A stretch of DNA of 64,000 bases from a virus. Numbering within the stretch: the stretch's first letter is position 1; every line of letters starts with the position of its first letter. Positions 3,453 through 59,827 of the stretch are shown here, piece by piece. The translations under genes were made by a program, and so were the position numbers. The stretch spans positions 1 through 64,000 of IMG/VR virus record IMGVR_UViG_3300016665_000824, one strand, 5' to 3'. The notes under the pieces are model-generated. The model had not been told where the DNA came from. It was given only the letters and a program-made list of their open reading frames with translations, and did no database searches.

Positions 3453-4394
3453 ATGGAATTCGTATTGTTTGACCCCCGCCCCGCATCCTTGGCTTCCGAA
3501 CAAGCCAGAATCCTTGTTCTTCGTGAGCAAGGCTACACCATTGTCGGTGTAGAGGTTACAGTCCCCGCGCTTGCGGGATTGTGTGACGTAAACATTGACC
3601 CCCAGCACGGGACTGGGGGCGACTCTTCAATGTCAGCGATCGCCTTGATTGCCAAGCACGGAATCGACCTTATCCCCAAAGGGGCGCAAAAGGTGGCATT
3701 TGCCACCGTGCGTCCTGACTTGGACAGCTTCGGAGGGATCGCCCTCCTGTGGTGGGAGCTACAAGCTCCTTATTCTGTGCAGCAGCATAGCTCCTCGGCT
3801 ATGCGATCGCGCATTCAAGCCATTCACCTGAGCGACACGTTCGCTCGCGGGGAATGGCAACCCCGTGAGTTAGGTACGGGCGAGGATAGTTACCTCGCAG
3901 CGATCGCTCGTTGTGTGAGCGATTTTAAACTGCCGATGCGCGATCGCGTTGAAGCCGTCCAGCGCTGGCTGGAAAATGGGTTGGAGCCTATTGGCTACCG
4001 ATCCGCATACGAATTGGAGCAGACAGAAATTTCGTCTGCTCTTAACATGGGAGAGATTACTGTAGATCTCTCCGAGCGATACGGCTACCCCGCCGAGGGA
4101 AAAGTCGTAGTAGTTCAATCCCGCCATCGGGCAGGGACAACTATGGGCTATACACAGGCTCCTGTTGTAGTAGCGCTCAATCCAGCGCTCGAATTTCGGG
4201 GAGTTATGACCCGCAAGTTTACCGTCTGTCAGTACCGCACTGGCTATGTAAATCTTCCTGCTGTATTGCAGGAACTTGCCTCCCTTGAGGCTGGCTGGGG
4301 CGGTTCGCCCACGATCATCGGCTCTCCCCAAGGGTCGGATTCTAATCTGCCACTGGAAACGGTGGTGGAAATTGTGACTAAGCACCTGCTATAG
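3453..4394 (+). CDS. hypothetical protein (313 aa)
   Basis: long ORF; ATG preceded by AAGGAG 6-7 nt upstream; no domain recognised. Confidence 0.7.
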   Translation: MEFVLFDPRPASLASEQARILVLREQGYTIVGVEVTVPALAGLCDVNIDPQHGTGGDSSMSAIALIAKHGIDLIPKGAQKVAFATVRPDLDSFGGIALLWWELQAPYSVQQHSSSAMRSRIQAIHLSDTFARGEWQPRELGTGEDSYLAAIARCVSDFKLPMRDRVEAVQRWLENGLEPIGYRSAYELEQTEISSALNMGEITVDLSERYGYPAEGKVVVVQSRHRAGTTMGYTQAPVVVALNPALEFRGVMTRKFTVCQYRTGYVNLPAVLQELASLEAGWGGSPTIIGSPQGSDSNLPLETVVEIVTKHLL

Positions 4395-4397
4395 TCA

Positions 4398-4435
4398 CAA
4401 CCCTTTTAGTAAGCTTACGAATTTGCGTAGCTTAC
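4398..4435 (+). terminator. 16-bp perfect stem hairpin after ORF 3453-4394
   Basis: TTTTAGTAAGCTTACG aatttg CGTAGCTTACTAAAA read directly. Confidence 0.55.
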
Positions 4436-4475
4436 TAAAAGGTTGATTATCGTAAACATTAAATTAGTAATCATC

Positions 4476-4730
4476 ATGACAGAACAACAAAAAAATTGGC
4501 GAATTTCCATTGGTATTCATCGCGGTACGATGACGAGTCGCGACAACAATCTAGTGTACGAACACTTTGACGATCCGACAAAGCCCTTAATCTCTCTTGA
4601 GGAGTGTCGCGAGACAGCTAAAAAGTGGGAAGAAAGCTACCACTCTATGGGCTACTTCATCTGGTTTGGCACAGCCATCTCTCCAGATGGCGAACCTACA
4701 GACGTTTTGCAGGGTGCGCCATATCGTTAA
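4476..4730 (+). CDS. hypothetical protein
   Basis: ORF; ATG at 4476 chosen over upstream TTG 4443. Confidence 0.5.
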   Translation: MTEQQKNWRISIGIHRGTMTSRDNNLVYEHFDDPTKPLISLEECRETAKKWEESYHSMGYFIWFGTAISPDGEPTDVLQGAPYR

Positions 4731-4769
4731 TGGCAAATAATCAGCAAGTAAAGACAACAAGGGAAAACA

Positions 4770-5381
4770 ATGACTCACATTTATTCAATCTTTAACAACG
4801 ATCATTACGATCGCCTTCTAGAACAATTTGAATTTAAACCAAGACTCAAGCTCGCTAAGATTTCCGAGAAATATGGCTTTGAGTATTGGCTTGAGGTTCT
4901 CAAAATAGAGGTAAAAGATATCTGGTTCTTCTACCTCTTCGACGAGGCACTCGCCTATCACTGGTGCTCTCCGCAGACGTATCATGCTCTTGGGTATGTG
5001 GGATGCTGGTATGACGTAAACTCGCTAGTAGTCCCCCATACTATTACTCGTGACGGGGTGATTCTTGCTAACGGCGGAACTGTTCACCCAGAGTATCTTG
5101 AAGACGGAGAATTCCGATACCACAACTGGTTTGAAGATCAAATAGAAGTATCTGGCGCTGATAATGACGGGAACGCAGAGAGATCTATTCTCATCCATGA
5201 TTTTGCCACTCACGAAGGCGAGTTTTCGTTAGAAGAGCTTGGCGTTGACCAGCAAGATATCGAGTGTTTAACAGCCGCCGAGGTGCTATCAAAAGCCTAC
5301 GAAGCGGTGCTTGAGTATCGTAATGGATGGGGGCACGAAAGTTTGTTTAACTTATTCGAGAAGGAGGCGATCGCTGTATGA
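4770..5381 (+). CDS. hypothetical protein (203 aa)
   Basis: ORF with protein-like composition; no domain recognised. Confidence 0.6.
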   Translation: MTHIYSIFNNDHYDRLLEQFEFKPRLKLAKISEKYGFEYWLEVLKIEVKDIWFFYLFDEALAYHWCSPQTYHALGYVGCWYDVNSLVVPHTITRDGVILANGGTVHPEYLEDGEFRYHNWFEDQIEVSGADNDGNAERSILIHDFATHEGEFSLEELGVDQQDIECLTAAEVLSKAYEAVLEYRNGWGHESLFNLFEKEAIAV

Positions 5382-5569
5382 CTGACGCAGAAAGAATTGA
5401 GTTGCTAGAAAAACAGGTTGCCGAGCTTCAAGAGTTTGCGCGATCGCTTGTTGCTGAACTTAAATACGCCTATGTCAATCTCGAAAGCGACCGCACCTCC
5501 TACCTAGTAATGGAGAAGGATTACCTTTTCCAAGAAAAAGTTGAAACCTTTTCTAAGGAACCCGAATAG
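5378..5569 (+). CDS. hypothetical small coiled-coil-like protein
   Basis: ATGA start/stop overlap with upstream gene. Confidence 0.55.
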   Translation: MTDAERIELLEKQVAELQEFARSLVAELKYAYVNLESDRTSYLVMEKDYLFQEKVETFSKEPE

Positions 5570-5636
5570 GTGCGCTACATGAATCTCTGCTGCCTGTCGT
5601 GTCTGGTGGGCTGACTACGAACAACCAAACAAACCG

Positions 5637-7636: not shown

Positions 7637-8338
7637 ATGGATTTAACACAATTGCGCGGGATTGATTACCAAAGGCAAACAGCCATCAAGAAGATTATTC
7701 TGGGCTTAAACGATCCAGAAAAATACGAGGCTGTGCGTGAATGGCGCGATCGCTTACACAGCGAGCCGTTTAACTACGAATTAAAGCTCCGAGCTGTTGA
7801 CTCGATCATGGATGCTCATGGAGTAGAAGTCCTGATTGCTGACGAGACTGGTAAGGCGATCGCCTCCTACGTCAACACAGGCGACACCTATAGCGCCACA
7901 GTGTTGTACGACCACGAGGAAGAAGAGTTTCTCATCACCTCTTGGGGTGACTTCTACGAGGAGTGGAAAGCCGAAAACGTCATTGAGGTCAACTGCAAAG
8001 ATGTCGCTAAGTATATCCATAAAGTTTCTCATTCTGAGTATATCGAGTGGGCGGAGCTTGTTGAAGGCGGTCGCGACGAATATGACTCCGAAGAGGACTT
8101 TCTTGAAGACGCTTATCTTGACATCCGCCTTCAAATTATGGAAGACGGAAGATGGTCTCTGCCATACGGATCTTCGGACTTCGATCAAGACCACCGTGGT
8201 GCTTGGGGCAGCTCCAGCGTCGGCAAGTGTGTGTCGATGGAGAAGGCAATGGAAATCGCCAGAGATTTGATTGAGCAGGCTGCGGAGTCTGCTGGCTGCT
8301 GTTTGACTAAGACTGTGAGGGTTTACAACGATGACTAG
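7637..8338 (+). CDS. hypothetical acidic protein (233 aa)
   Basis: ORF; AGGAG upstream of ATG. Confidence 0.65.
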   Translation: MDLTQLRGIDYQRQTAIKKIILGLNDPEKYEAVREWRDRLHSEPFNYELKLRAVDSIMDAHGVEVLIADETGKAIASYVNTGDTYSATVLYDHEEEEFLITSWGDFYEEWKAENVIEVNCKDVAKYIHKVSHSEYIEWAELVEGGRDEYDSEEDFLEDAYLDIRLQIMEDGRWSLPYGSSDFDQDHRGAWGSSSVGKCVSMEKAMEIARDLIEQAAESAGCCLTKTVRVYNDD

Positions 8339-8540
8339 TATTGTCGGACTATCTACTGACGGAACGTTTGAGGGCGAACTGTATCGCACAGCAGAAATGC
8401 TTGTCGAAATTGCGGAGAAAGACGGCGTTTACTTCGCGATCGCCTTTATTCATGACTTGGGTTACACACATGAAGACCTTAAAAAATTATTACCTATCCT
8501 CCAAAGCACTAGTGGAGCTATCAAGAAGTATGACAACTAG
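8331..8540 (+). CDS. hypothetical protein
   Basis: ORF overlapping previous stop by 8 nt. Confidence 0.5.
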   Translation: MTSIVGLSTDGTFEGELYRTAEMLVEIAEKDGVYFAIAFIHDLGYTHEDLKKLLPILQSTSGAIKKYDN

Positions 8541-8763
8541 AACAAAAGCAGAGCGCGATCGCAGTATCGCCGCCAACTACGAGTTCTACAAACATAAGTT
8601 TGTGGGCAAGACGGATCAAGAGTTGAGAGAGTGGGCGAAGGCAGGTTTTGACGGAACTACGGATATCAATCTGTCCGAGTTCACAAAAACCATGATGGTA
8701 AACATAGCCTTTGCTATCGAAGAAGAATTAAACAAAAGAGGAGTTGCAGGTGTTTATGACTAA
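8530..8763 (+). CDS. hypothetical protein
   Basis: internal ATG at 8530 of track ORF 8341-8763; N-terminal part of the longer ORF looks like out-of-frame readthrough of 8331-8540. Confidence 0.45.
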   Translation: MTTRTKAERDRSIAANYEFYKHKFVGKTDQELREWAKAGFDGTTDINLSEFTKTMMVNIAFAIEEELNKRGVAGVYD

Positions 8764-9058
8764 TCCAACAACCGTAAAAACTGGGTGGATGGGAGATCCA
8801 TCTAGAGGTGCAGCAATGGGTCGCCCATCTAGAATCACCCATGTTTCTCAACTTCCACCTCGCAGTGTCTATCTGTCGCGAGTCAAGTTGATTGACGGCT
8901 ATGACGAAGGCGGGGCTTACTGGGGAGTTGGAGCGCCATTGTACTGCGCTTACTCCGACGACTATTGCGAGTACTGCGAGTATGTTCGCGCTTATTCTCG
9001 CGAGGATGCCGCTACTCAACTCGGATTGACTTCTCAACAACTTAAGAGGGCGCTATAA
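8756..9058 (+). CDS. hypothetical protein
   Basis: ATG 8756 overlapping previous stop by 8 nt (track gives 8744 TTG). Confidence 0.5.
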   Translation: MTNPTTVKTGWMGDPSRGAAMGRPSRITHVSQLPPRSVYLSRVKLIDGYDEGGAYWGVGAPLYCAYSDDYCEYCEYVRAYSREDAATQLGLTSQQLKRAL

Positions 9059-9061
9059 ATC

Positions 9062-9349
9062 ATGCTCCCTGAGTCAATCGCATTGATTTCAAGCTCAAAA
9101 GATCCCCTACTTTTGCAGTCCAACGTTTCTGTTCGTGAGGTTCATACCTCTCAAATATCGGTAGGAGATACTATTCTCTGCCCCGACGGGACTGTTAGGA
9201 CAGTATGTAATAGAAACATTCATCGCTGCCCTTCTATGGGGCGTTCAATATTTGGAGATACCTATCAACTCGGACATAAGCCTGTCCTTAGAGTCGTAAT
9301 CACTAGAACCATATACAGAGAGGGAAAACAATGCTTCGTAGAAGTTTGA
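9062..9349 (+). CDS. hypothetical protein
   Basis: 95-codon ORF. Confidence 0.5.
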   Translation: MLPESIALISSSKDPLLLQSNVSVREVHTSQISVGDTILCPDGTVRTVCNRNIHRCPSMGRSIFGDTYQLGHKPVLRVVITRTIYREGKQCFVEV

Positions 9350-9630
9350 TTGTCGCTTCATTATTCTTGGCAGAAAGCGCGATCGCCACTCCACTTCCAC
9401 TCGACCCACACCTCTGCTACATGCAGAAATCGAATGGGCAGGTAGTCAACCTCGGTCACTTGTGCGGCAAGGGAGAGATCGCTCTCCCAGTTATAGGAGT
9501 AGCGCCAACTACCGCGACAACATCTACTCGTGCCACCTCCTCTGGGAAGTGTACATTTAGTGGTGATCGCGATTCTCGTGGAAATTTATGTGGCGGACGC
9601 GCAAGTGTTCGTCGTAAAGGAGGTAGGTAA
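9331..9630 (+). CDS. small secreted Cys-containing protein (predicted signal peptide)
   Basis: N-terminus MLRRSLIVASLFLAESAIA is signal-peptide-like; 4 Cys; Thr/Ser-rich linker; basic C-terminus. Confidence 0.55.
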   Translation: MLRRSLIVASLFLAESAIATPLPLDPHLCYMQKSNGQVVNLGHLCGKGEIALPVIGVAPTTATTSTRATSSGKCTFSGDRDSRGNLCGGRASVRRKGGR

Positions 9631-46220: not shown

Positions 46221-48428
46221 TTATCCCTTACCGTTACTGGGTTTTGAGGTTGGCTTATAGACATCATAGAGAGAGCCAATCTTCCCATTCTTCTTAGAGG
46301 CGTATAAAATCATAGGATCTTGACCCTCCATAGGGGCGAAGCCAGCCTTTTCGTAAATACTCTTACGCTTACTGCCAGCCCCATCTTTGTCATAAGCCCC
46401 AGCCGTAAGAATAGAGTTGTCGGGCATAGCCTCAATATGCTTGGCAAACGAAGCCTTTGTCATGCGAATAATTTGTTTTGCTCCAGAAGCCCCAAGGTTG
46501 GCGGACTCCTCCTTGTTATTGGATTCGTTTATGGCGAAAGAAACCTCGTAGACACTTCCTCCAGAAGCTTCTTTTTTGTACACAGTCGTAAAGGTGTACA
46601 AGGCTGGTCCAACAGAAGCTACAGTATAAACCCCACCATTCTTTCTATCCCTGTAAGTGAAGCTGTTCGATTCTTTGTCTACGTCAATAAGATCCCGACC
46701 CTTAATAGACTGAGTTTTTCTTGCCAAGGCGAGCTTGGTCATTCCGATAAGACCTTTTGCTTTGTCTTTAAGGGCTGGGCTTAAATCAGATCTATCCAAA
46801 GCCCGATCCGCCACTTTCCCCAAGGCTAAACTCTGCTTGTAGGTCATAATCAGTGCAACATCTGAAATCTTGTAATCTTTTGTCGCTTGAATATTGCCAA
46901 TACCGACGACTCCAGCTACCACTGAACCTACGCTACCTGCGACGATCGCTGCCTTGCGAGCGCCTTTGTTAGAAAGTAGTCCGATAGCCTTGTCTACTGG
47001 TGTCTCCTTTTTTTGTAGGGGCGGCTGAGGTATAGAGAATTCCGTTTTTGGTTGTTGTGACTCGCTTGGATTACCCCCTTTTGTTGACTTGCCTCGGTTT
47101 GCAGCGATCGCCGCCGCACCACCAACTAAGGCAGCAGCACCTAAACCAGTACCAACATTTCGGGCTAAATTATTCTCGCTTTTTTTCTCGCCGATCTTTT
47201 GACAGGCGTTTCCACGCTGGACATAGCCTTCCTTGCATTTGAGCGTTCTACCCTTGTCGTAGCGCAAAGATACCGACATACGCCCCTCAAGATAAGACGA
47301 ATCATTCTGTAGATCGGCATCAGTCCGCCTTGTAGTTGCACTTTGATAGATGTTGCTAAATAGGTAAAGAACTTCGATATCCTCGTCATCCTCAACCGAG
47401 TCTCCCCTCTTCTCATTTATCTGGGATATCTTCTCGTTTGTTTTAGCCTCTACGTTTTCTCTAAAGTCCTTGAGTCCACCCCTCTTTGTTGCGAGGGTGA
47501 GAGCAGTGCCAAGAAGAATGGTGTCTCGCTCAGCTCTTCTTAGAACCTTCTGAAAAGGAGATAAGGTAGATTCATTCTTACCACCCGAAATCGACTTGGA
47601 CACATATTCTCCCGCAATGCGTTGAATTTCAGGATCTTTAGACCACTCGGAAGCTACGGATGAGCCATATTTCAAGGCTGCGCTACGAGCTTTTGGATTG
47701 GTCAGCACCTCTTTTGCGATAACCATAGAGGCTTTTTTCTTTGCTTCAACTAAGTTTGTTTCGTTACTAAATTCAGGAGCGACAAAAGTTCCGACAGCGC
47801 TGGCTACTTCTGGCTTTTCCGCAAGAATACTCAAAATTGCGGTAGCTTTATCTCTGTAAGCAGGATTGTTTAAATCCTTGATGCGCCTTTTAATCAATAC
47901 TTGAGATAAATTGTCTCCCTCACTTTTGATTTCACCTTTCTTCTCTTTTGACAAAAGGTTTGCCACTACAGAGACAGTCTTGTTCACCGCCACCGAAGCC
48001 GCCTTTTTCGTTGCGCCCAATATAATCTGATTCTTTTTCTGAGAGATCGCAGCCCCAGTTACCGCAACAACGGTACTGGCTCCAGCCGCCAAATACCTCT
48101 TCGCCAGAGGAAGTCCTTTCTCCCCTTTTTTGGAGGCAGTAGAACTCGAAAGAAGGGCAACAGGGGCGGGATCTACGGCTCTGTTTTCTTGCGGAGATCT
48201 TCTCGATGCGATCGCCGCCACACCGCCGACTAAAGCCGCAGCCCCTAGCCCTGCGCTAATATTTCGAGCTAAATCACCCCCAGCCTTCTTCTCGCCAATC
48301 TTCTGGCAAGCAGCCCCGCGCTGTACATAACCTTGCTTACACTTAATCTTCTTCCCCGCATCTTGACGTAGAGCGACAGACACCTGCCCCTCAAGATAAG
48401 CTAAGTCACTGGCTAAATCTCTCGTCAT
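46221..48428 (-). CDS. large modular protein with duplicated Cys-motif + Gly/Ala-zipper module (735 aa); function unknown
   Basis: two copies of YLEG..SV.LR.D.G...KCK.GYVQRG.ACQKIGEKK ... GLGAAALVGG.AAIA. Confidence 0.8.
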   Translation of the reverse strand: MTRDLASDLAYLEGQVSVALRQDAGKKIKCKQGYVQRGAACQKIGEKKAGGDLARNISAGLGAAALVGGVAAIASRRSPQENRAVDPAPVALLSSSTASKKGEKGLPLAKRYLAAGASTVVAVTGAAISQKKNQIILGATKKAASVAVNKTVSVVANLLSKEKKGEIKSEGDNLSQVLIKRRIKDLNNPAYRDKATAILSILAEKPEVASAVGTFVAPEFSNETNLVEAKKKASMVIAKEVLTNPKARSAALKYGSSVASEWSKDPEIQRIAGEYVSKSISGGKNESTLSPFQKVLRRAERDTILLGTALTLATKRGGLKDFRENVEAKTNEKISQINEKRGDSVEDDEDIEVLYLFSNIYQSATTRRTDADLQNDSSYLEGRMSVSLRYDKGRTLKCKEGYVQRGNACQKIGEKKSENNLARNVGTGLGAAALVGGAAAIAANRGKSTKGGNPSESQQPKTEFSIPQPPLQKKETPVDKAIGLLSNKGARKAAIVAGSVGSVVAGVVGIGNIQATKDYKISDVALIMTYKQSLALGKVADRALDRSDLSPALKDKAKGLIGMTKLALARKTQSIKGRDLIDVDKESNSFTYRDRKNGGVYTVASVGPALYTFTTVYKKEASGGSVYEVSFAINESNNKEESANLGASGAKQIIRMTKASFAKHIEAMPDNSILTAGAYDKDGAGSKRKSIYEKAGFAPMEGQDPMILYASKKNGKIGSLYDVYKPTSKPSNGKG
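47080..47330 (-). repeat. intragenic duplicated module, copy B (approximate bounds)
   Basis: DNA and protein similarity to 48190-48428. Confidence 0.5.
48190..48428 (-). repeat. intragenic duplicated module, copy A (approximate bounds)
   Basis: see 47080-47330. Confidence 0.5.
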
Positions 48429-48763
48429 TTCTTGCTCCGCTTTTTAATCATCTTGCTAATAGCTTCAGCTCCATTAGCCACTTTAGACTCAACCTTGCCC
48501 GTAGCTCGACCCGTGTTAAAGATTGCCTTACCAGTATTAAAATCCTCTTTCAATCCTGTTTTACCTTTATCGGCAAGTTTGGCGATCGCCACAGCAGTCA
48601 GTCCCGCGATCACGCCACGACCAACTGCGCCAGCAACACTCTTAATCGCTGTTTTAAGTTTGCCTTTACCACAAGTAGCGCCTTGAGGGATGCAGTAGGT
48701 TTTACCATCTTCTCCTTGGCAGGGTTTGCCGCGATCGCACGTTGTGTCTAGTCTAATCTTCAT
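48425..48763 (-). CDS. small Cys-knot + Gly-zipper membrane-helix protein (112 aa)
   Basis: TTCDRGKPCQGEDGKTYCIPQGATCG then AIKSVAGAVGRGVIAGLTAVAIA; ATGA coupling to downstream gene. Confidence 0.7.
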   Translation of the reverse strand: MKIRLDTTCDRGKPCQGEDGKTYCIPQGATCGKGKLKTAIKSVAGAVGRGVIAGLTAVAIAKLADKGKTGLKEDFNTGKAIFNTGRATGKVESKVANGAEAISKMIKKRSKK

Positions 48764-50468
48764 ACTTATTTTTCACCGCTTTTTCCACCGCAAGTCTGGC
48801 TGCAATACCAATCGCGATCTTAACTATGGGATGAGAACCTTCTGCGTAAGAAGGAGAGGCTTTTTGTAACGCTGCAAATGAAGCTTTCGTGCCTACATAT
48901 TGCGTTGCCGCGTCAGAAAACATCAATAGCGCAGTTTTTTCTGTCTGACCTAACGAGGAGTCGGACAACGTTCTCTCTGTCGCATCACGAGCAACTTTAC
49001 CTCCAAAGGCTCCAACCAAACTAGAACCAATCTCATATCCAAGCATCTTGAGTTTGTCTTTTTCTTGCCTCCCAATCGATTTTAAGGTGACAAAATCGCC
49101 CACTTGCTGGACAAAGTTCTTTTTCGCTTGCGGAGTTTGAATCATGGCTTGGAGGCTTCTGCCTGCGCTTGAATTGCGGAGTTTTCCAATAGAGCGGGTT
49201 AAGCGATCTCCTAGTCCGCCCCTTCCTTTTACTGTGGATAGAATAGCCTCCCCGACCTGCATCCCGTCCCTAGCCTTCTGCCTTAAGTCGTGTTGCTTCC
49301 CCTTAGGGGCATTAGCGATTAGGGCTAGCGTAGTCGCCGAGGCTGCTGCTACCCCTATTGTTGCCAAGGTTCTTGAGGAAATAAAAGGTTTTCTCTTTTC
49401 TGACCCGCAGGTTGCGTTTTTTGGGATACAGTAAGTCTGACCGTCCTCGCCCTTGCACGGCTTTCCGCGATCGCAGGTAGAATCTATTCTATTTTGAATA
49501 GATCTTGTTTTTTTGTAGATGTATCCGCTAGTCCTCCCCGTCTTAGATCTCAAAAAAGAATCTGTTTCTGTACTGATTTTGCGTGCAAACCCCTGATAAT
49601 CCTGAAAACGATCGGTCACAGTTCTGGGTTGCTTGTCCTGCCATTTTTCTGTTAATTGCCTGTTTAGATTGGCGTGAACGTCAGCCAACTCTTTAGCTAG
49701 TGAGCTACTAGGAGAAAATGCCCCCTCTCTTTTAGCCTGTAATACAGAGGTGGTTTCCGCTCCAGTCGCACGAATTTCTTTGATGTTACTAAAAAACGCT
49801 CCTACTTTTAAGTCGGCGGGACTAAAGGCTGACGTATCTCCAACCCCAGCAATATCTGGGTGATTGTGAGTCATCAGTACTGTGTTTTTTGCGGCTTTTT
49901 GATTATACGCATCGGTTATTCCAAGAGAGACCGAGCCTATCTGCCCTTTTCTGATCAGTGAAGGCTTGCCATCCACGTCAAAAGCAAAAAGAGTCTCGAA
50001 ATCATTATGCTGGATCTTTCTTTCTGCCGCGTAAACACTAATTGCAAGTTCTTTGGGGAGGTGGCTATATGCAGGAGCATCTCTTGCGGGAATGCCATTC
50101 TTGGCTACGTCTTCTCGTTCTTTCGCAAACTCCTTATAGGTTTCAACATCATCAAGCTTCTCTCTTATAACCTTATTGGCAATCATGGCTCCCACCCCCA
50201 GCGCTAAAAACTTAGCCGCCGCCTGAGGATCTTTAGAAGCTAATGCGGCTCCTGCCGCTAGTACAGTCAGTTTTGCAAGAGTTCCAGTTCCATCGCCCTT
50301 ACTAGCTGTGGATAGGGAACCAGTTCTAGATATCGGATGACAGGCGGAGCCTCTTTGGACATAACCTTGCCGACAATTGATTTTTTTGTACTCATCCCGC
50401 CTCTCCACATATCGCGATCGCGACAGTAGATACCCCATTTCGTACTCGTTCTTGTTATCTAGTCTCAC
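48753..50468 (-). CDS. large modular protein (571 aa) with N-terminal Cys/Gly-zipper module, a second 4-Cys motif, and an HNHP...SPAD motif
   Basis: GTG start in GTGA overlap with upstream stop; shares modules with 735-aa and 112-aa proteins. Confidence 0.75.
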   Translation of the reverse strand: MRLDNKNEYEMGYLLSRSRYVERRDEYKKINCRQGYVQRGSACHPISRTGSLSTASKGDGTGTLAKLTVLAAGAALASKDPQAAAKFLALGVGAMIANKVIREKLDDVETYKEFAKEREDVAKNGIPARDAPAYSHLPKELAISVYAAERKIQHNDFETLFAFDVDGKPSLIRKGQIGSVSLGITDAYNQKAAKNTVLMTHNHPDIAGVGDTSAFSPADLKVGAFFSNIKEIRATGAETTSVLQAKREGAFSPSSSLAKELADVHANLNRQLTEKWQDKQPRTVTDRFQDYQGFARKISTETDSFLRSKTGRTSGYIYKKTRSIQNRIDSTCDRGKPCKGEDGQTYCIPKNATCGSEKRKPFISSRTLATIGVAAASATTLALIANAPKGKQHDLRQKARDGMQVGEAILSTVKGRGGLGDRLTRSIGKLRNSSAGRSLQAMIQTPQAKKNFVQQVGDFVTLKSIGRQEKDKLKMLGYEIGSSLVGAFGGKVARDATERTLSDSSLGQTEKTALLMFSDAATQYVGTKASFAALQKASPSYAEGSHPIVKIAIGIAARLAVEKAVKNKYED

Positions 50469-53083
50469 TGGCTTTGCTTCCTCGCTTTACGGCGTTGAGT
50501 TAATGTTGCATTGAGTTTTTTGGCGATCGCGTCAGCAGCATTTACCGACAGGTAATCCACTGCGCTGCCGTTAGTTCCTGAGAAGCTATCGGGGTTTTTG
50601 CCCTTGAATGGAGTTCGACTCCAGAGATCGCCGTCCGACCACAGATCGGTCTTTGGAGTTTTTAGCAGATCTGTATCTACTTTTTTCTTATCTACCTTCT
50701 CTCCCCCAAAACCCAGCTCAGGAGTTCCCAAAGTAACAAGGTGAATTTGTTTAGCAATATAAGTCCCAGCAACATTTCCTTGCGAACCTGTTTTTTGCAT
50801 TGACTCCAAGATGTCCAAAGCCCTTTTTGCTGTTTCTCCACCTTGCTTTAGCCCAATAACAGAAATAGCTGGGTATTCAGTTGAGCTTCCCTCGTATGAG
50901 CTGTTTCCGATAGCGTAAAGTTCCGCAGCCAACTTTACAGCTTCAGGGTCTCGTCCCGCTTTGAGGGTCTTACTCATCACGGCTTCGTAGCTTCTTGCCA
51001 TAGTGTCAATAACACCCATAACCCTGCCCCTAGACTGAGGCGGGAGGGTTCGATCAAAAGAAACCACGTCGCTTTGATCGTAGAAGTCTTTCTCTGCTTG
51101 AGACTGAAGCTTTGATCCGTTACTTTTAATTGATTTGCCCAGAACATCGCTAGGAGTTTCTCCATCTCCTATTGCGATAATGACGCTGGGATTTATTGGG
51201 GTAGGCAAAGTCGTTCGTCCACTTGCTACAATCTCTTGAGCCTCAAGAGCAGACTTCGCTATATTGTTGTTGTATTTAACCCTCGCAGCCACAGCAGCAG
51301 TCACCGTTACTTGACCAAGTACGGCTACAGTATTAATCGCTGCTGCTGTGGGATTGTCTTGATATTTATCCTTGATCGCAGAAACCAGATTCCACGTCTT
51401 TCCTAGCGTTGGGTTTACCGCAGTGATCGCCGCCGCTATTTCTTTTGCCCCCTTGTCGCTAGACTTGCTTCCCGCAACAGAATTAGAGAAAAATCCAAAC
51501 GTCTCGCGGATTTTATCTCTGACCGTGCTATCGGTTAAGTAGTCCTCAATCTCATGCCCCTTGACCGAGCTGACAAACTGCGAAAACCTCTTAGGCAGGA
51601 TTGAGAAAGGATCGTTTTTGGAGGTAATAGTGCGGTTGTTAATGTTCGCCCAGTTCTTGTCGTCTTGAGTTGTGCCACCCGTCAAACCGAAGGATGCACC
51701 GCCAAGTCTGGCGATATTGAGGCGCTTCAGAACTTCTCCACCATCAAGCCCCCTAGCAGGCTTGATCCGACTCAAAATTTCGGCAGCTTCATCAACAACG
51801 TTGCCCCCAGAACCGTGACTAACTACGTTCAAAGGCTTGTCACGATACTTAGAGCCATAAGCATACAATTTAGAAGCCAGATCCACCGCAGCTTCGTTTC
51901 TGCCACCGACAATATTGCTTAGATATTTGCCAAAACTTTCTTTAGCTACATACCCCAGATACAAGGGATTGTAGTTCCCGTTTTTATCCTTTGGGAGAAT
52001 ATCGGTTGGAGGAACATTAAACTCCGAATTGTTGAAGGGGATGACCTGCTGGGTCTTGTTAAACCACTGTTCCCGTTTTGAAGTGTCAAGCGGAGTTTTT
52101 AAATATTCAGCGAGCTTATCACCAGAAGAGCCAAGGTTGGAAAATCCTCCTACAGCAAAAGTTAGTTGAGGTTTGGAGGTTGGCTCGACAGGAGTAGTTT
52201 GTGCTCTTTGGTACGCCATTAGCGCCGATTCAGGCAAGCCTTCTTTGTAGCGATCGCGAGCGGTCATCATTACCGATGAGGGAATGCCCAGCAGTACGCT
52301 TGCCGCTAATATGCCTGCCGCAGGGCGATTGTCTCCAAAAAACTTGCTAATCTTTTCGATATCTTTCCATGCGCCAGCAACGGGTTGGGGTAGCAAACTC
52401 TTAAGAGCTTTCTTGCTAGACTCTGCGCGATTCAAGCCTTCACGAACAATCTTCTGGCGATCGGGATTGGCTTTTTGCAGGCGAATTGATTCTCGCAATT
52501 GAGCCTGACTCATATACGAGTAGCGATACACGCCTCGTTTGCGAGCTTCTTCCTTTAATTCCCGAATATTCTTGTTATCAAGATCGTCCTCAACTGGGGC
52601 AACGCCAACAAATTTCGCTTTTTGAACTTGGTTTACCGCATCATTCAGATCGGAAATCTCTTGTCTATTTAAAGCTTCAGGAACGTCAATACGGCAGGTG
52701 TCCGTCTTTGCAATACAAGCGCCTTTGCAGGATAGTCCAACCTTACAGTTCTTGGGCTTAGAAATTTTATCGGTACGTTGACCGATATTGTTTGCATAAG
52801 CAAGTAAGTACTGATCTGCGTCAGTATCTACTGCATCAGTGCGACCATCCTGTACCTGCTTATACTCAATGCGATCTCCTAATTCCAGCCGAATCAGCTT
52901 TTGATCCTTGTCATCATCACGAAACAGACAAGTGATAAGCCCGTCATTACCGATATTGATATTAAGGATCTGATCGATACTCCCGTAGGCGCGAGAAATA
53001 ATGCGAGTTAATAGCCTCGCAATCGTTCTTCTTGCGGCGAGAGGATCTGTGGTTTGAATTGGTGGTGGTGCGATCGCGTACAT
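50465..53083 (-). CDS. large modular protein (872 aa) with N-terminal Cys motif; function unknown
   Basis: N-terminus ...NCKVGLSCKGACIAKTDTCRID; Ala/Val-rich hydrophobic segment; VSHGSGG motif mid-protein. Confidence 0.75.
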   Translation of the reverse strand: MYAIAPPPIQTTDPLAARRTIARLLTRIISRAYGSIDQILNINIGNDGLITCLFRDDDKDQKLIRLELGDRIEYKQVQDGRTDAVDTDADQYLLAYANNIGQRTDKISKPKNCKVGLSCKGACIAKTDTCRIDVPEALNRQEISDLNDAVNQVQKAKFVGVAPVEDDLDNKNIRELKEEARKRGVYRYSYMSQAQLRESIRLQKANPDRQKIVREGLNRAESSKKALKSLLPQPVAGAWKDIEKISKFFGDNRPAAGILAASVLLGIPSSVMMTARDRYKEGLPESALMAYQRAQTTPVEPTSKPQLTFAVGGFSNLGSSGDKLAEYLKTPLDTSKREQWFNKTQQVIPFNNSEFNVPPTDILPKDKNGNYNPLYLGYVAKESFGKYLSNIVGGRNEAAVDLASKLYAYGSKYRDKPLNVVSHGSGGNVVDEAAEILSRIKPARGLDGGEVLKRLNIARLGGASFGLTGGTTQDDKNWANINNRTITSKNDPFSILPKRFSQFVSSVKGHEIEDYLTDSTVRDKIRETFGFFSNSVAGSKSSDKGAKEIAAAITAVNPTLGKTWNLVSAIKDKYQDNPTAAAINTVAVLGQVTVTAAVAARVKYNNNIAKSALEAQEIVASGRTTLPTPINPSVIIAIGDGETPSDVLGKSIKSNGSKLQSQAEKDFYDQSDVVSFDRTLPPQSRGRVMGVIDTMARSYEAVMSKTLKAGRDPEAVKLAAELYAIGNSSYEGSSTEYPAISVIGLKQGGETAKRALDILESMQKTGSQGNVAGTYIAKQIHLVTLGTPELGFGGEKVDKKKVDTDLLKTPKTDLWSDGDLWSRTPFKGKNPDSFSGTNGSAVDYLSVNAADAIAKKLNATLTQRRKARKQSQ

Positions 53084-53085
53084 GA

Positions 53086-54492
53086 CTATTTTTTAGCTTG
53101 CTTCTGGTTTTCTTCTTCCGCCTTGTTTATGGCGTGGGCTGCGAGAGCTAGAGATCCAGCAGTTGCCGCAACGTTCGCTCCGATCGCGCCAGCAACAGAT
53201 GCTCCGCGACCATGACCACGCGATCGTAAAGCTCTGTAAGTGCCGCTACCGATCGGCCCAGCCAGCGCCTGTACCGCCCCCTTTCCAAAAGCTTTGGCAG
53301 TCTCCCCAGCACAATTCTTTTCTTGAGGAATACAGATCTTTCCGCAAGGCTTAGTACCTGAACCGCACTTTGCGTCTTCACGAAGCTGCTCGACGAATGA
53401 GTCGATGCGCTCATCTAAGGATTCGTATCGACGACTTGTTTTATTCCACACTCTATTTGTAGTCATATTCGCTCTTCTAATTCGTTTTGGCATCTCCCTC
53501 CGAGTTGTTTTAACCTCAGATGCTTTTACGTCTACCGTATTATTCTTGTCAACAAAAGTCTGCATAAAACTTCTAGCGAAATTGTCTACGGCGTTAAGAG
53601 TTGATCGGGTGGTAGATCCCGCCTTTTTTGCCGCCTCGTTTAGGTCGATAGTTTTGTCGGCAAGATTCTTCCTCGCGACGCGATCGCGTTCTAGCCTTTC
53701 TTTTGTTTTTCGATACAACTTACCCGCCGCCGCACCTGCGGAACCAGCAGCTCTTGTTAATAGTGGCTTCTGAGGTTCGGCGATCGCACTACCACTACTC
53801 TTGCCCGATTCACTCGCAGCAATAGTTAATCCACCAGTAGATACCTTGGAAGCAGGAGGGTTGTATGGCAGTCGAGTTGGAGGTGGGGGTGTAGGAGTTT
53901 CAGGTTTATTGACGGGGACTAGTGCTCCACCGATTTCTGGCTTGGGCTTGGGTGATGGAAGGCGATCGGGCGGGGCTAGCCTCCTGCTTTCTATCTCGCC
54001 TTGCCGAGCTGCTTCTCGCTCAAGATCTTTCTTAGCCTTATATCGAAAATACTCCTCTTCTGCCGCAGCTTCCTCTGCTCTCCACCGCGCCCTCCGAGTT
54101 TCGCTATCCTTTTCGCCAGCCTTGTTTGCGCCCTTCTCGATAATGGGGCGAAGACCTACGGTGATGGCTTTATTCGCAATTACACCTGCGCCGAGTGATG
54201 CGGCAGTTCCACCGACCTTGATCGCCGCTTTCTTAGCAAACTCACCAACCTTATTGGGAGGTGACTGAGGAAGTATAGAAGCAGGCTCCGTCACAGGGAT
54301 AGGCTTCTGTTCTTCTGGCTTCTTCCTTAGCGCGATCGCTGCTGCCCCCAACCCACCCAAGGCAAGTGCAGCGCCAACACCCGCAGCCCCTTTCTTTGCT
54401 GCACTGGCATTGCGGAAGTATGAATAAGCCTTACGTCCATTTTGCGCTGGGACTTTAACTTCTACCTGTGCGTCCTGTCTTTCAGTACTCAT
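53086..54492 (-). CDS. modular protein (468 aa) with Gly/Ala-zipper helix, Pro-rich linker and C-terminal Cys motif
   Basis: GAAGVGAALALGGLGAAAIA near N-terminus; PSPKPKPE...PETPTPPPPTRLP linker; CGSGTKPCGKICIPQEKNCAG; ATGA coupling. Confidence 0.75.
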   Translation of the reverse strand: MSTERQDAQVEVKVPAQNGRKAYSYFRNASAAKKGAAGVGAALALGGLGAAAIALRKKPEEQKPIPVTEPASILPQSPPNKVGEFAKKAAIKVGGTAASLGAGVIANKAITVGLRPIIEKGANKAGEKDSETRRARWRAEEAAAEEEYFRYKAKKDLEREAARQGEIESRRLAPPDRLPSPKPKPEIGGALVPVNKPETPTPPPPTRLPYNPPASKVSTGGLTIAASESGKSSGSAIAEPQKPLLTRAAGSAGAAAGKLYRKTKERLERDRVARKNLADKTIDLNEAAKKAGSTTRSTLNAVDNFARSFMQTFVDKNNTVDVKASEVKTTRREMPKRIRRANMTTNRVWNKTSRRYESLDERIDSFVEQLREDAKCGSGTKPCGKICIPQEKNCAGETAKAFGKGAVQALAGPIGSGTYRALRSRGHGRGASVAGAIGANVAATAGSLALAAHAINKAEEENQKQAKK

Positions 54493-56528: not shown

Positions 56529-57440
56529 TTACAATCCGTGCAACCAGAGTACGGAGTAGGGACGCTTGATAATCAAGCCGCCGTACTTCATACGGGCGGT
56601 GCGCTGCATCCCACGAGGAAGCTCAATCCACTTCTTGAAGGAGAAAGGCTCGGTAATGCGGAACTTGATTTTGTTCGGATCGCGCTTGTAGTAACAAGCA
56701 ACGTTAGAACCGCCATCACCAACACCTTCGAGAGGGAGTAAGGGGAAGTAATCCTTAATGTAAGTTGCCTTACTCAAGTAGTAATCAAGAACAGAATCAC
56801 TGTTGAAGTCACTGAGACGACGGAAGCTGATTTCATCGTGAGTTGCCTGAGCAAACAAGATCGTGTCAGGGGTCTCAATATTGCGGGTCAAACGACGCAT
56901 GGCGTTGCCAGTGTTGTTCAATACCGCAAGAAGCTGAGCTACCGTAGCATTGCTGTCAAAAGCGTATGCAGAGTAGGACTTCAAAGTATCAGGATGGTTG
57001 AAGAAACCGCGCAATTGACCGTCACCCAAGAACACCATCTTGTCGAGGTATTGTTGACCTGCTTCAAGCACGATCTGGACTTTTTCCGCCTCAATGCCAG
57101 TACCAAACTTTTGAGAAAGTTCGATTTCTTTGTCATTAAGGGTATAAGCACCAATATGCTCAGAAACTCTTTGGCGGAATTCTCTCGACACGATCTCGAC
57201 GTTAGGAACGTGAGTGGTGTAGTCGCGAGCAGCTTCCCACCGACCGATACCAGTTACCTTGCGATAGCCAGTTTCTTCGAGTTCAGGTTTGTTCCAATCT
57301 TCGCGAGGAAGGAGAGTGCCGTTAGCCCAGTAAAGCTGTTCGTACTCTTCTTTTTCGAGAGACTGTTCTAGTTCGACGAGCTGCTCTTTGAAGTAGCCCA
57401 CCGACCAATCATCATTCTTAATTTCAGTAGCTGTGGTCAT
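56529..57440 (-). CDS. putative major capsid protein (303 aa)
   Basis: start refined to ATG 57440 (GGAGGAG upstream); track ORF N-terminal 96 aa is readthrough overlapping the upstream gene; abundance terminator follows. Confidence 0.6.
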   Translation of the reverse strand: MTTATEIKNDDWSVGYFKEQLVELEQSLEKEEYEQLYWANGTLLPREDWNKPELEETGYRKVTGIGRWEAARDYTTHVPNVEIVSREFRQRVSEHIGAYTLNDKEIELSQKFGTGIEAEKVQIVLEAGQQYLDKMVFLGDGQLRGFFNHPDTLKSYSAYAFDSNATVAQLLAVLNNTGNAMRRLTRNIETPDTILFAQATHDEISFRRLSDFNSDSVLDYYLSKATYIKDYFPLLPLEGVGDGGSNVACYYKRDPNKIKFRITEPFSFKKWIELPRGMQRTARMKYGGLIIKRPYSVLWLHGL

Positions 57441-57450
57441 TGGACTCCTC

Positions 57451-58323
57451 CTAGAAGTTCGCGTAAACTTTGACAACCCTGTTGTTGTTGATGTCGATAA
57501 CAACATCGGAGCGGAAACTGGCGCGGGTCGAAGCGTCGATCGCGCTGTTCGCATTGGTCTTTTGGGCATAACCCTTAGAGCCAGCAGCAACAGAGATATA
57601 AACGGTGTCGGACTCGGCGATACTGGTTTCCAAAGTAGGAACCCAAATACCAGAGAGATCACCCAATCGTCGTTGAACATCAACCGCCAACTGGTTAGCT
57701 TCGTATCCAGCAGTCGCCGCTTCGCCAACCACGTCTTTTTGAACGGAGGTGTTTAGGCGGGTGATGCCGCAGATAGCGGAGATTGCGTCACCACTGTTAG
57801 GAAGGCGAATGCTGCCACCATTGAGAGTTCCAGTCACACGAGGAGTTGTGCCTGCGACCTTGGTGACAAACAATCCAAAGCCAATGCGAGATGGGGCTGC
57901 GGCTGCGGTAGTTGGAGTGGTAGGCACGGTTAAAGGTGCTGCACCGCCACCACTGACGCTCACAAACATCGGGGTATTATCCTTGCGATGAGTGAAGACC
58001 AAAGTTGAGGTGTTATTTACCACCGAGGCAATCTGGCTGGCGCGAAGGTTAGCGCGGAACGCTGCGTACAAGCCTGCGGCAAGGTCGGCGCGAACAGTTG
58101 AAGCGGTGGTAAAAGAGAAGGTGATTGGGTTATCGGAGGTATCAGCATCATAGATAGTGATGCTGTACACAGTGGCTGTAACGGGAGTTGCAGGAGTTGT
58201 AACCGTCCAAACTTCCTTAACGTAGCCACTGTCATTGTGATAGGCTTCAACAGAGCCAACACCCATGCCCTCAACCATTCCAGCGAGAGCCTGTGTGTAA
58301 TACTGGCGATAATTCTTTTGCAT
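57451..58323 (-). CDS. putative head protein (290 aa; Thr/Ala/Val-rich, decoration or second capsid component)
   Basis: ORF between protease/scaffold-like and capsid-like genes. Confidence 0.6.
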   Translation of the reverse strand: MQKNYRQYYTQALAGMVEGMGVGSVEAYHNDSGYVKEVWTVTTPATPVTATVYSITIYDADTSDNPITFSFTTASTVRADLAAGLYAAFRANLRASQIASVVNNTSTLVFTHRKDNTPMFVSVSGGGAAPLTVPTTPTTAAAAPSRIGFGLFVTKVAGTTPRVTGTLNGGSIRLPNSGDAISAICGITRLNTSVQKDVVGEAATAGYEANQLAVDVQRRLGDLSGIWVPTLETSIAESDTVYISVAAGSKGYAQKTNANSAIDASTRASFRSDVVIDINNNRVVKVYANF

Positions 58324-58336
58324 TGTTTAGTTGCTC

Positions 58337-59827
58337 CTATTTTCTAGTGGAACGAGCTAAGGGTTTGGAGTAGTTCTTGCCGTAGCGCTCGTTATTGCGT
58401 TCTGCGGCATCCTTCTTCTCCTCGGAATCTTTACGCTCAGTGCGACCAACCTTTACGGCGGTCTCTAGGCGATCTGCGTAGCTAGGCGCAGGAACAAGAG
58501 TTGCGTACTCAGCCGCGCTATCGAAACGGGCTTCGATGTAGCTATCGTTGCGATCGCTTAAATCAACTTCAGGATGAATAGCCTTCAGTGCAGCGCGACG
58601 AATCTCGGTGGAGTCCATCGTGGTTTCGATACCTGCATCCTCGATGTTGATACCCTTAGAGGTAAGAAGGTCGTGAGCCTTGCCAATTGCATCGAGGCGA
58701 TCGGCAGTCTGGCGATTGATTTCTTCAGCGAGGAATTCACGGACTTCATCGGAGTCAAGAACGACTGCCAACTCAGAAGAGTCCATCTTCTTGCCCTTCT
58801 TCATCTTTTTCTTGATGAAGTCAGGCATCTTGCTTTCACCCTCGGATTCCTCATCGTCAGGCTCGCCTTCGCCGTCTTCCTTGTCACCACAAGAAGCATC
58901 CTGACGGATAGTTTCGAGTTGAGTTAGGGTTTCGGTTAGCTCATCTTCAAGAGCGTCAGCACGACCCTTGGTGCGATTAACTTCGGAAGTAAGGTCGGCG
59001 ATCGCGTCAGCCTTCTCTTTGAGTTCAGCCTCAAGAGAATCCACGCGAGACTTATATTTAGATAGTTCTTCGAGTTTTTGCGACAGGGGGTAGAGCGCGA
59101 TGTCCTCCACCTGAAACTCGCCAGCGCCATCCACGCGCAATGTTTTTGTTTTCAAATCGGACATAGCGGAGCTACCCTCATTTTTAATTGTTGGAATAAC
59201 GACAACGCTGTTCGGAGCAGAGGCTTTAACTTGGATCGAGTCAAAGCGAACTAGCTCAACAACCTCATCCCCATCGGCATCGGCACTATCGAGGTGCATC
59301 CTCACAGTGCTCCCCCCGCGTGGGTTGTCAGTTGCGGCGCAATGGTCTGGTCGAATCTTGGTTTGAACACGGTCAAAATCGCCCCGATAGGTGATCTGGT
59401 CGATCGCGTCGAACCATTCGCCATTCGGGGCTTCTACGATTTCGCATTCATATCCAAGAGAAAGACCGTTCTTTTTGCCTGCCTTTACGGACTGGGCAAA
59501 ATCGGGGTTAGAGATTCGGGCAATATTCTGTACAACCCCCTCGTTATCGTTGTACTCACCCGCCCTTGTTAATTCACCAACAGCGCTATCTCGTTTTCCC
59601 CGCAATAGCGAAGATGGATGCTCGACAGTCATCGGCAATCCTTTTAGGGACTCAAGGAAATCGCGATCGCGGTTTGCCGAAGCAGGTCGCAATTCACGAA
59701 CTCGCTTTCCGTCACCTCGAAAGTATGTCAATATGCCGTCTCGACAAACCGTGCTGTACGCATACAGCCCGTCCGCACGTTCTTCAGTGCGGGTCGCGAA
59801 ACTTACGTCATCAAAACGAAATGCCAT
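58337..59827 (-). CDS. putative prohead protease / scaffolding fusion protein (496 aa)
   Basis: globular N-terminal ~190 aa, then acidic coiled-coil region (EELSKYKSRVDSLEAELKEK..., DKEDGEGEPDDEESEGE); first gene of the operon. Confidence 0.55.
   Translation of the reverse strand: MAFRFDDVSFATRTEERADGLYAYSTVCRDGILTYFRGDGKRVRELRPASANRDRDFLESLKGLPMTVEHPSSLLRGKRDSAVGELTRAGEYNDNEGVVQNIARISNPDFAQSVKAGKKNGLSLGYECEIVEAPNGEWFDAIDQITYRGDFDRVQTKIRPDHCAATDNPRGGSTVRMHLDSADADGDEVVELVRFDSIQVKASAPNSVVVIPTIKNEGSSAMSDLKTKTLRVDGAGEFQVEDIALYPLSQKLEELSKYKSRVDSLEAELKEKADAIADLTSEVNRTKGRADALEDELTETLTQLETIRQDASCGDKEDGEGEPDDEESEGESKMPDFIKKKMKKGKKMDSSELAVVLDSDEVREFLAEEINRQTADRLDAIGKAHDLLTSKGINIEDAGIETTMDSTEIRRAALKAIHPEVDLSDRNDSYIEARFDSAAEYATLVPAPSYADRLETAVKVGRTERKDSEEKKDAAERNNERYGKNYSKPLARSTRK

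Follow-up and report, generated by a model that had tools for sequence, protein, structure and literature searches.

JAB domains are known in phages, as is RadC in polyvalent proteins. In lambda, the tail protein K, which combines a JAB/MPN with an NlpC/P60 domain, is encoded in the siphovirus tail-gene region. A survey of polyvalent proteins lists RadC only in those of the conjugative-element type and describes cyanobacteria as poor in polyvalent proteins (Iyer et al., 2017; PMC5512222), and for JAB domains of the RadC type an action on nucleic acids or nucleotides has been proposed (PMC5512222). In a survey of MuF toxins, JAB is not mentioned (Jamet et al., 2017; PMC5576092). In the literature we found no paper describing the JAB family reported here or a phage-encoded JAB counter-defence enzyme. 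What is new in the present window, i.e. the whole stretch of 64,000 nucleotides that was analysed, is a RadC-related JAB family which is not covered by library models and which occurs in a split, tag-headed virion cargo system.

The window belongs to a siphovirus-like phage whose relatives infect filamentous cyanobacteria. Its major capsid protein shares 33% identity with the counterparts in Aphanizomenon phage CL131 and Planktothrix phage PaV-LD. The protein of interest, with a length of 571 aa, is encoded by the third of five genes (Table 1) that are separated by 2-nt gaps or overlap by 4 – 11 nt (GTGA, ATGA), which suggests that the whole set is translationally coupled, and the tape measure homologue follows immediately downstream. 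There is a 4-nt overlap between the start of the 571-aa gene and the stop of the 872-aa gene upstream of it, and the same start is found in four homologues (68 – 100% identity). A syntenic phage contig shows the same gene order as the window. In the syntenic relative L002, an inserted TnpB/IS605-type gene (4363-5589) separates the head-tail connector genes from the module set, and no TnpB-sized ORF is listed at the matching position in the window.

Table 1. Location of the 571-aa gene, its parts and its neighbours in the window.
Feature	Position	Strand	Remarks
571-aa ORF	48753..50468	-	GTG start; module 1 with JAB-like domain, module 2 with conserved helical C-terminal part
N-terminal leader of module 1, residues 1-43	50340..50468	-	R-L-D and 2-Cys element CRQGYVQRGSAC
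Ala/Gly-rich hydrophobic helix 1, residues about 62-101	50166..50285	-	Kyte-Doolittle scan; predicted helices 60-103
JAB/MPN-fold domain (predicted), residues 136-262	49683..50063	-	new RadC-related family
E149, helix 1	50022..50024	-	second, family-specific conserved Glu; 34/36 members
E158	49995..49997	-	predicted general-base Glu of JAMM motif; invariant (36/36)
H201-N202-H203-P204	49857..49868	-	invariant (36/36); aligned to RadC HNHP by hhalign; His pair predicted Zn ligands
Variable insertion loop between HNHP and SxxD, residues 205-215	49824..49856	-	family length range; pLDDT dip in model
S216-P-A-D219, JAMM S-x-x-D	49812..49823	-	D219 invariant, S216 35/36; D219 predicted third Zn ligand
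Internal module junction, residues 326-354	49407..49493	-	N-R-I-D-S-T, then 4-Cys element CDRGKPCKGEDGQTYCIPKNATC
Hydrophobic helix 2, residues 366-388	49305..49373	-	hydrophobicity of sequence
C-terminal helical module, residues 389-571	48756..49304	-	best-conserved part among close homologues
Gene set 468 > 872 > 571 > 112 > 735 aa	46221..54492	-	between head genes and tape measure gene
872-aa protein	50465..53083	-	
735-aa protein	46221..48428	-	
RxD-Cys elements	53311-53367, 52694-52747, 50340-50375, 49407-49475, 48671-48739, 48306-48341, 47202-47237	-	recurrent sequence element
Tape measure homologue, 2811 aa	37345..45780	-	tblastn to CL131, PaV-LD and Nodularia phage TMPs, E down to 2e-114; PHROG TMP match
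Head module: DUF2213 protein, cement-like protein, major capsid protein	56529..59827	-	Pfam matches

A recurrent sequence element, in the following referred to as RxD-Cys element, heads every module of the 468-, 872-, 571-, 112- and 735-aa proteins in the form R-x-D(A)...K-C-x2-G-x2-C-G-x2-C-I-P-x4-C or in one of its variants, namely a version with two cysteines (CxQGYxQRGxAC) and a long one (CDRGKPCxGEDGxTYCIP). Nearly all cysteines of the five-gene set fall within these elements, which are usually followed by an Ala/Gly-rich hydrophobic helix. As such, module 1 of the 571-aa protein consists of leader, helix and JAB domain, and module 2 of leader, helix and a conserved helical C-terminus. 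The leader in residues 1-43 is paralogous to both the N-terminus and an internal junction of the 735-aa protein (BLASTP E 1.6e-7 and 3e-6), and the junction between the two modules of the 571-aa protein shares 69% identity with the N-terminus of the 112-aa protein encoded downstream. The element, for which no library model exists that covers it, was also found in the loci L001, L002, L005, L006 and L012-L017, where cargo such as JAB, ART, NUDIX or phosphatase domains follows it in relatives, and at the head of the CL131 virion proteins gp044, 045, 047 and 048; it is absent from the control loci. It may represent a tag for virion loading or processing.

Several features of the neighbouring proteins deserve mention on their own. 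The 872-aa protein, a homologue of the CL131 virion protein ORF048, contains an internal duplication that became visible through the relative P0006, with residues of about 390-535 resembling 707-846, and an SHGSGG motif that loosely recalls a serine-hydrolase signature; this hydrolase-like motif was unsupported by PDB sequence searches. The 735-aa protein is composed of two modules whose leaders, in residues 1-75 and 368-443, are almost the same, and within its C-terminal 160 residues or so the stretch '...KRKSIYEKAGFAP...' resembles the acetyl-CoA-binding motif of GNAT proteins, a likeness for which Pfam and PDB sequence searches gave no support. The tape measure homologue, with 11 hydrophobic segments clustered in residues 510-1510, does not contain a single cysteine, in contrast to the Cys-tagged modular proteins encoded upstream.

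In the initial annotation, an HNHP...SPAD motif at 49790-49880, corresponding to residues of about 200-219 of the 571-aa island protein, had been proposed as a possible JAB/RadC-like signature of longer than canonical spacing. The position is borne out by the translation of 49812-49871 on the minus strand, which reads THNHPDIAGVGDTSAFSPAD and equals residues 200-219, and so is the spacing, with 12 residues from the second His to the Ser as compared to 7. When the 64-kb window is translated in six frames and all stop-free stretches are scanned, the pattern HxH-x(6-13)-SxxD occurs a single time, and it is present in 0.4% of the shuffles of the 571-aa protein; by itself it is moderately unlikely to arise by chance and no more than suggestive. 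The decisive evidence for a genuine motif comes from conservation and fold.

Close homologues are scarce, as only four (68 – 100% identity) were found in an index of 5.8 billion proteins, all of which keep THNHP and S-x-A-D. An exhaustive phmmer search with residues 100-330 against 1.84 billion representatives (E ≤ 1e-3) returned 36 proteins with 21 – 40% identity to the query. In this family not only HNHP and D219 but also E158, G167 and G175 are invariant, and E149, T200, S216, E231 and R233 are conserved in at least 90% of the members. The upstream Glu of the JAMM motif, for which the initial annotation had advised to look, is hence found in the invariant E158, with E149 being nearly invariant in the family as well, and the conservation in homologues on which the motif had been made to depend is evident. 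The JAMM set E...HxH...SxxD is thus complete and differs from the canonical E-x(n)-H-x-H-x(7)-S-x-x-D in its spacing. Between E158 and H201 there are 42 residues (35 – 45 across the family), and the loop from the second His to the Ser comprises 6 – 19 residues with a mode of 6 (12 of the 36 members), the members with the shortest loop reading THNHPSGSSFSPAD. The long gap between HNHP and SPAD is therefore explained by an insertion in a loop whose length varies freely within the family. Other searches were less productive: a word-indexed protein search with the domain profile yielded two proteins only, no relatives of the full-length 571-aa protein were found in IMG/VR, and tblastn of the 571-aa protein against isolate phages gave no match. 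The family is so far known almost only from metagenomes.

With regard to the fold, an AF2 model of the whole 571-aa protein from four sequences was unusable (pLDDT 39). The structure prediction that had been suggested as a check was obtained for residues 136-262 on the 36-sequence alignment (pLDDT 87, pTM 0.82) and gave a JAB-like fold, i.e. the alpha/beta fold of the JAB/MPN (JAMM) superfamily, which opens with a helix and two strands, continues with helices and a strand that ends in H-N-H and, after a loop, closes with a helix from S..D onwards and two strands. SPAD is placed at the beginning of the model helix 82-88. In the fold comparison, the domain model scored 8.1 with PfJAMM1, 7.9 with Sst2/AMSH, 7.7 with BilC, 7.6 with Cap3, 7.4 with RadC 2QLC (20% identity), 7.0 with AfJAMM and 6.8 – 6.4 with Abraxas 2, Npl4, BRCC36 and Rpn11; cytidine deaminase made its first appearance at rank 11 with 6.3. 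A Foldseek search against the PDB returned chains of RadC 2QLC as the best four matches, with a probability of up to 0.99. In a viral structure library, the best matches were uncharacterised or "minor capsid" proteins of uncultured phages (≤31% identity, TM-score 0.71), followed by phage proteins that carry RadC, MPN or metalloprotease annotations. No JAB structure was recovered when PDB chains were searched by sequence, with one non-significant match in the single-sequence search; matches of the profile search to designed "Pizza" beta-propeller repeats were spurious and arose via a short D-x-x-G-x-V motif. We are highly confident that residues of about 136-262 adopt a JAB fold and are homologous to JAB domains.

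The relation to RadC, which the initial annotation had named alongside JAB, is supported and can be narrowed down further. The 571-aa protein has no match in Pfam, NCBIfam, PHROGs or PADLOC even at E ≤ 1, and the Pfam RadC model PF04002 matches neither the whole protein nor the domain at that threshold. Among the isolated domains of the 36 relatives, three are weakly touched by the RadC model (best E 0.0095), and the tandem-copy relatives P0009 and P0039 (three or four copies) exceed its gathering score by summed scores, the matched stretches falling on the HNHP region. For a profile comparison, a RadC alignment was built from proteins retrieved with the JAB domain of E. coli YicR, a query that is 99% identical to database RadC proteins carrying PF04002. 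Using hhalign, the family aligned to it with 88.5% probability and an E-value of 2.7e-6 over only 51 columns, with HNHP and S..D in register. Of the residues conserved in RadC (PF04002; 2QLC; YicR), namely HNHPSG, P-S-x-x-D, P-R-E and a D-H on the strand after the helix, the 571-aa domain shares only HNHP and S..D. The RadC alignment has invariant P58, R59 and H111 and nearly invariant E60 and D110, and none of them has a counterpart in the 571-aa domain, whose family has its own E149, E231-x-R233 and a G-W motif instead of the P-R-E and D-H of RadC. Whereas the spacing from HxH to S is fixed at 7 in the RadC alignment, it ranges from 6 to 19 in the family, and whereas RadC is fused to an HhH N-domain, family members have MuF, ART or leader modules as fusion partners and are encoded in structural regions of phages. 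The domain is hence a homologue of RadC but not a demonstrable member of it, and as it goes unrecognised by Pfam, NCBIfam, PHROGs and PADLOC, we regard it as a new family inside the JAB superfamily with RadC as the nearest relative.

The relatives provide information on where such domains reside. MuF is present in nine of the 36, and ART, DRAT or an XkdF protease occurs in others. In P0006, the JAB module is fused to a part homologous to the 872-aa protein next to the 571-aa one (32% identity, E 3e-81), and the next gene encodes a giant protein of 3129 aa; P0007, encoded next to a related head module and amid genes for MuF, InPase, NUDIX and His_Phos proteins, combines JAB with an ADP-ribosyltransferase; and P0009, encoded near a portal gene, carries MuF, DRAT and four tandem JAB copies. 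The most informative relative is gp044 of phage CL131, which was recovered only with the family HMM (E 1.5e-31) and in which a Cys element is directly followed by a JAB-like domain that is 27% identical to that of the window. In CsCl-purified CL131 virions, ORF044 (9 peptides, 46% coverage) as well as ORF045-049 were detected by LC-MS/MS (PMC6293099, Table S5). Six CL131-like IMG/VR contigs keep the CL131 gene order, with the JAB gene first, followed by Cys-element proteins, among them giants that have as many as five elements.

Not all family members belong to structural modules, as some are encoded by free-standing genes elsewhere. An odd, non-phage context was encountered on a 206-kb metagenomic contig, where the free-standing 176-aa protein P0040 (L003, 8001-8531; E 2e-25 to the profile) is encoded inside a ribosomal-protein operon between an 85-aa C-terminal fragment of L5 and S14. 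On a 9.6-kb contig (L004, 8001-8780), P0017 unites a weak MuF match with a JAB-like domain, and the same contig shows a match to a filamentous-phage coat protein and a rolling-circle Rep gene, which hints at an occurrence of the family in inovirus-like elements as well. In L008, a free-standing JAB-like gene of 190 aa (8001-8573) lies after a ParB_N/DUF4417 gene and just upstream of an intein-containing terminase, a non-structural and possibly early-gene context; a second, uncharacterised gene of equal length (8866-9438) has no match to the JAB profile.

From our point of view, the 571-aa protein probably provides a virion-borne zinc hydrolase module, encoded upstream of the tape measure gene, for which a peptide or isopeptide is the most probable substrate. 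The JAB domain would be the enzymatic cargo of module 1, with each of the two modules opening with the conserved RxD-Cys element and the Ala/Gly-rich hydrophobic helix; E158 would activate the water as a base, zinc would be bound by H201, H203 and D219, and S216 would stabilise the intermediate. The protein would be built into the virion and released together with the DNA, upon which the JAB domain could act as a zinc-dependent hydrolase, most probably cutting a peptide or isopeptide bond of a host protein or of the modular proteins of the phage itself. The individual parts of this reading differ in strength. Judged from its residues, the domain is likely to be catalytically active, as the invariant catalytic set points to an active zinc hydrolase and not to a degenerate MPN scaffold, and the suggestion that an enzymatic domain resides inside the island protein thereby gains support as a prediction from the full JAMM residue set. 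MuF fusions, effector-type partners, the position in a structural operon and the gp044 proteomics together argue that the domain travels in the virion, and by analogy with a 27%-identical domain found in virions, that of CL131 gp044, there is a good chance that the 571-aa protein is virion-associated. The assignment of a peptide or isopeptide as substrate, taken on its own, is tentative.

It is in the choice of substrate that the most serious rival differs. According to this alternative, fold and active site are the same, and the substrate would be nucleic acids or nucleotides and not proteins, as proposed for the RadC-type JAB; the domain would then be delivered early, and DNA or RNA of host or phage, or else a nucleotide signal, would be processed by it. 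The nearest sequence relative of the domain is RadC, and its best structural matches are isopeptidases. We rank the delivered peptide or isopeptide hydrolase as most likely and the nucleic-acid- or nucleotide-processing enzyme, which appears unlikely, second.

One could further imagine that the JAB protein is the maturation peptidase of the module set, cutting at or near the RxD-Cys junctions during assembly or after ejection in a role as proposed for zincin-like peptidases in polyvalent proteins. At least one JAB-like gene is indeed present in every examined RxD-Cys locus (the window, L002, L005, L006, CL131 and L012-L017), and both the JAB-like domain and the element are absent from the examined stretches of PaV-LD and a Nodularia phage. 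In addition, the internal junctions repeat the N-termini of free-standing modules, as expected if modules are separated, and no other peptidase domain was seen in the five-gene set. However, the co-occurrence is biased because most loci were found through the JAB domain itself, and the family is also present in phages without the Cys element (L004, L008, L009). JAMM enzymes moreover characteristically cut after the C-terminal Gly-Gly of a beta-grasp protein, none of which was seen here, and a homologue of a head maturation protease is already present. A junction peptidase is hence an attractive special case towards which the sampled loci are biased, and we consider it doubtful. At a similarly low level of probability, one could speculate that cyanosiphophages use the RxD-Cys element as a new tag for virion loading and processing, which packs interchangeable cargo (JAB, ADP-ribosyltransferase, NUDIX, phosphatase or 872-type) beside the tape measure protein, with JAB as the releasing or activating, or else deconjugating, zinc peptidase that would free or activate modules in the host or strip ubiquitin-like modifications such as those of Bil and type II CBASS. 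If true, phages would thereby have a new system for effector delivery, and this in a group of hosts so far regarded as poor in polyvalent proteins.

That the domain is a catalytically dead MPN scaffold, serving as a structural or protein-binding part of the virion, is very improbable, as all catalytic residues are invariant or nearly so in 36 sequences of only 21 – 40% identity, which is the opposite of what degenerate MPN domains show. A chance match or a different fold, for which the shortness of the motif, its rating as a motif-level hint in the initial annotation and the missing Pfam match could be put forward, is effectively refuted by conservation, fold and the hhalign match to the RadC profile; as for specific candidates, an HNH endonuclease was rejected because the HNH letters stand side by side and the fold does not fit, and a cytidine deaminase because a zinc motif of that type is absent.

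With a virion-borne zinc hydrolase as the preferred reading, an anonymous protein from a wholly unannotated gene block becomes an enzyme candidate that can be tested, and a JAB family is defined that four curated libraries miss. As CL131 is cultured and gp044 is present in its virions, activity, substrate and a possible counter-defence role are directly accessible to experiments. The findings further extend the theme of polyvalent proteins by tying a RadC-related family to phage head and tail modules and to cyanophages, which have been described as lacking such proteins.

The sequence identity of the domain to PfJAMM1 (5LD9), AfJAMM (1R5X), CBASS Cap3 (9ILD) and BilC (8TYY) amounts to only 7 – 13%, the PADLOC models of defence-system proteins do not match the 571-aa protein, and prokaryotic JAMM isopeptidases act with a ubiquitin-like partner and E1/E2-like genes, none of which was seen in the window. 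Lambda gpK shares with the 571-aa protein a JAB domain in the surroundings of phage structural genes, in its case the siphovirus tail-gene region. However, gpK is encoded among the tail-tip genes downstream of the tape measure gene and carries a C-terminal NlpC/P60 peptidase domain, whereas the 571-aa gene lies upstream of the tape measure gene and its product has no match to NlpC/P60.

Parallels are also found among polyvalent proteins and MuF toxins. Like these, the relatives of the 571-aa protein combine their domain with MuF, ADP-ribosyltransferases, a kinase-like domain and a protease, in a single polypeptide encoded beside portal or head genes, and modules are shuffled between proteins. 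While P0006, P0007 and P0009 combine domains, the 571-aa protein has a single recognisable enzymatic one, and by Pfam it contains no MuF domain. In the window, the system is split over several genes upstream of the tape measure gene, and the RxD-Cys element and the hydrophobic helix take the place of MuF. What polyvalent and MuF proteins and the relatives of the 571-aa protein are predicted to have in common is the underlying logic of packaging and injection.
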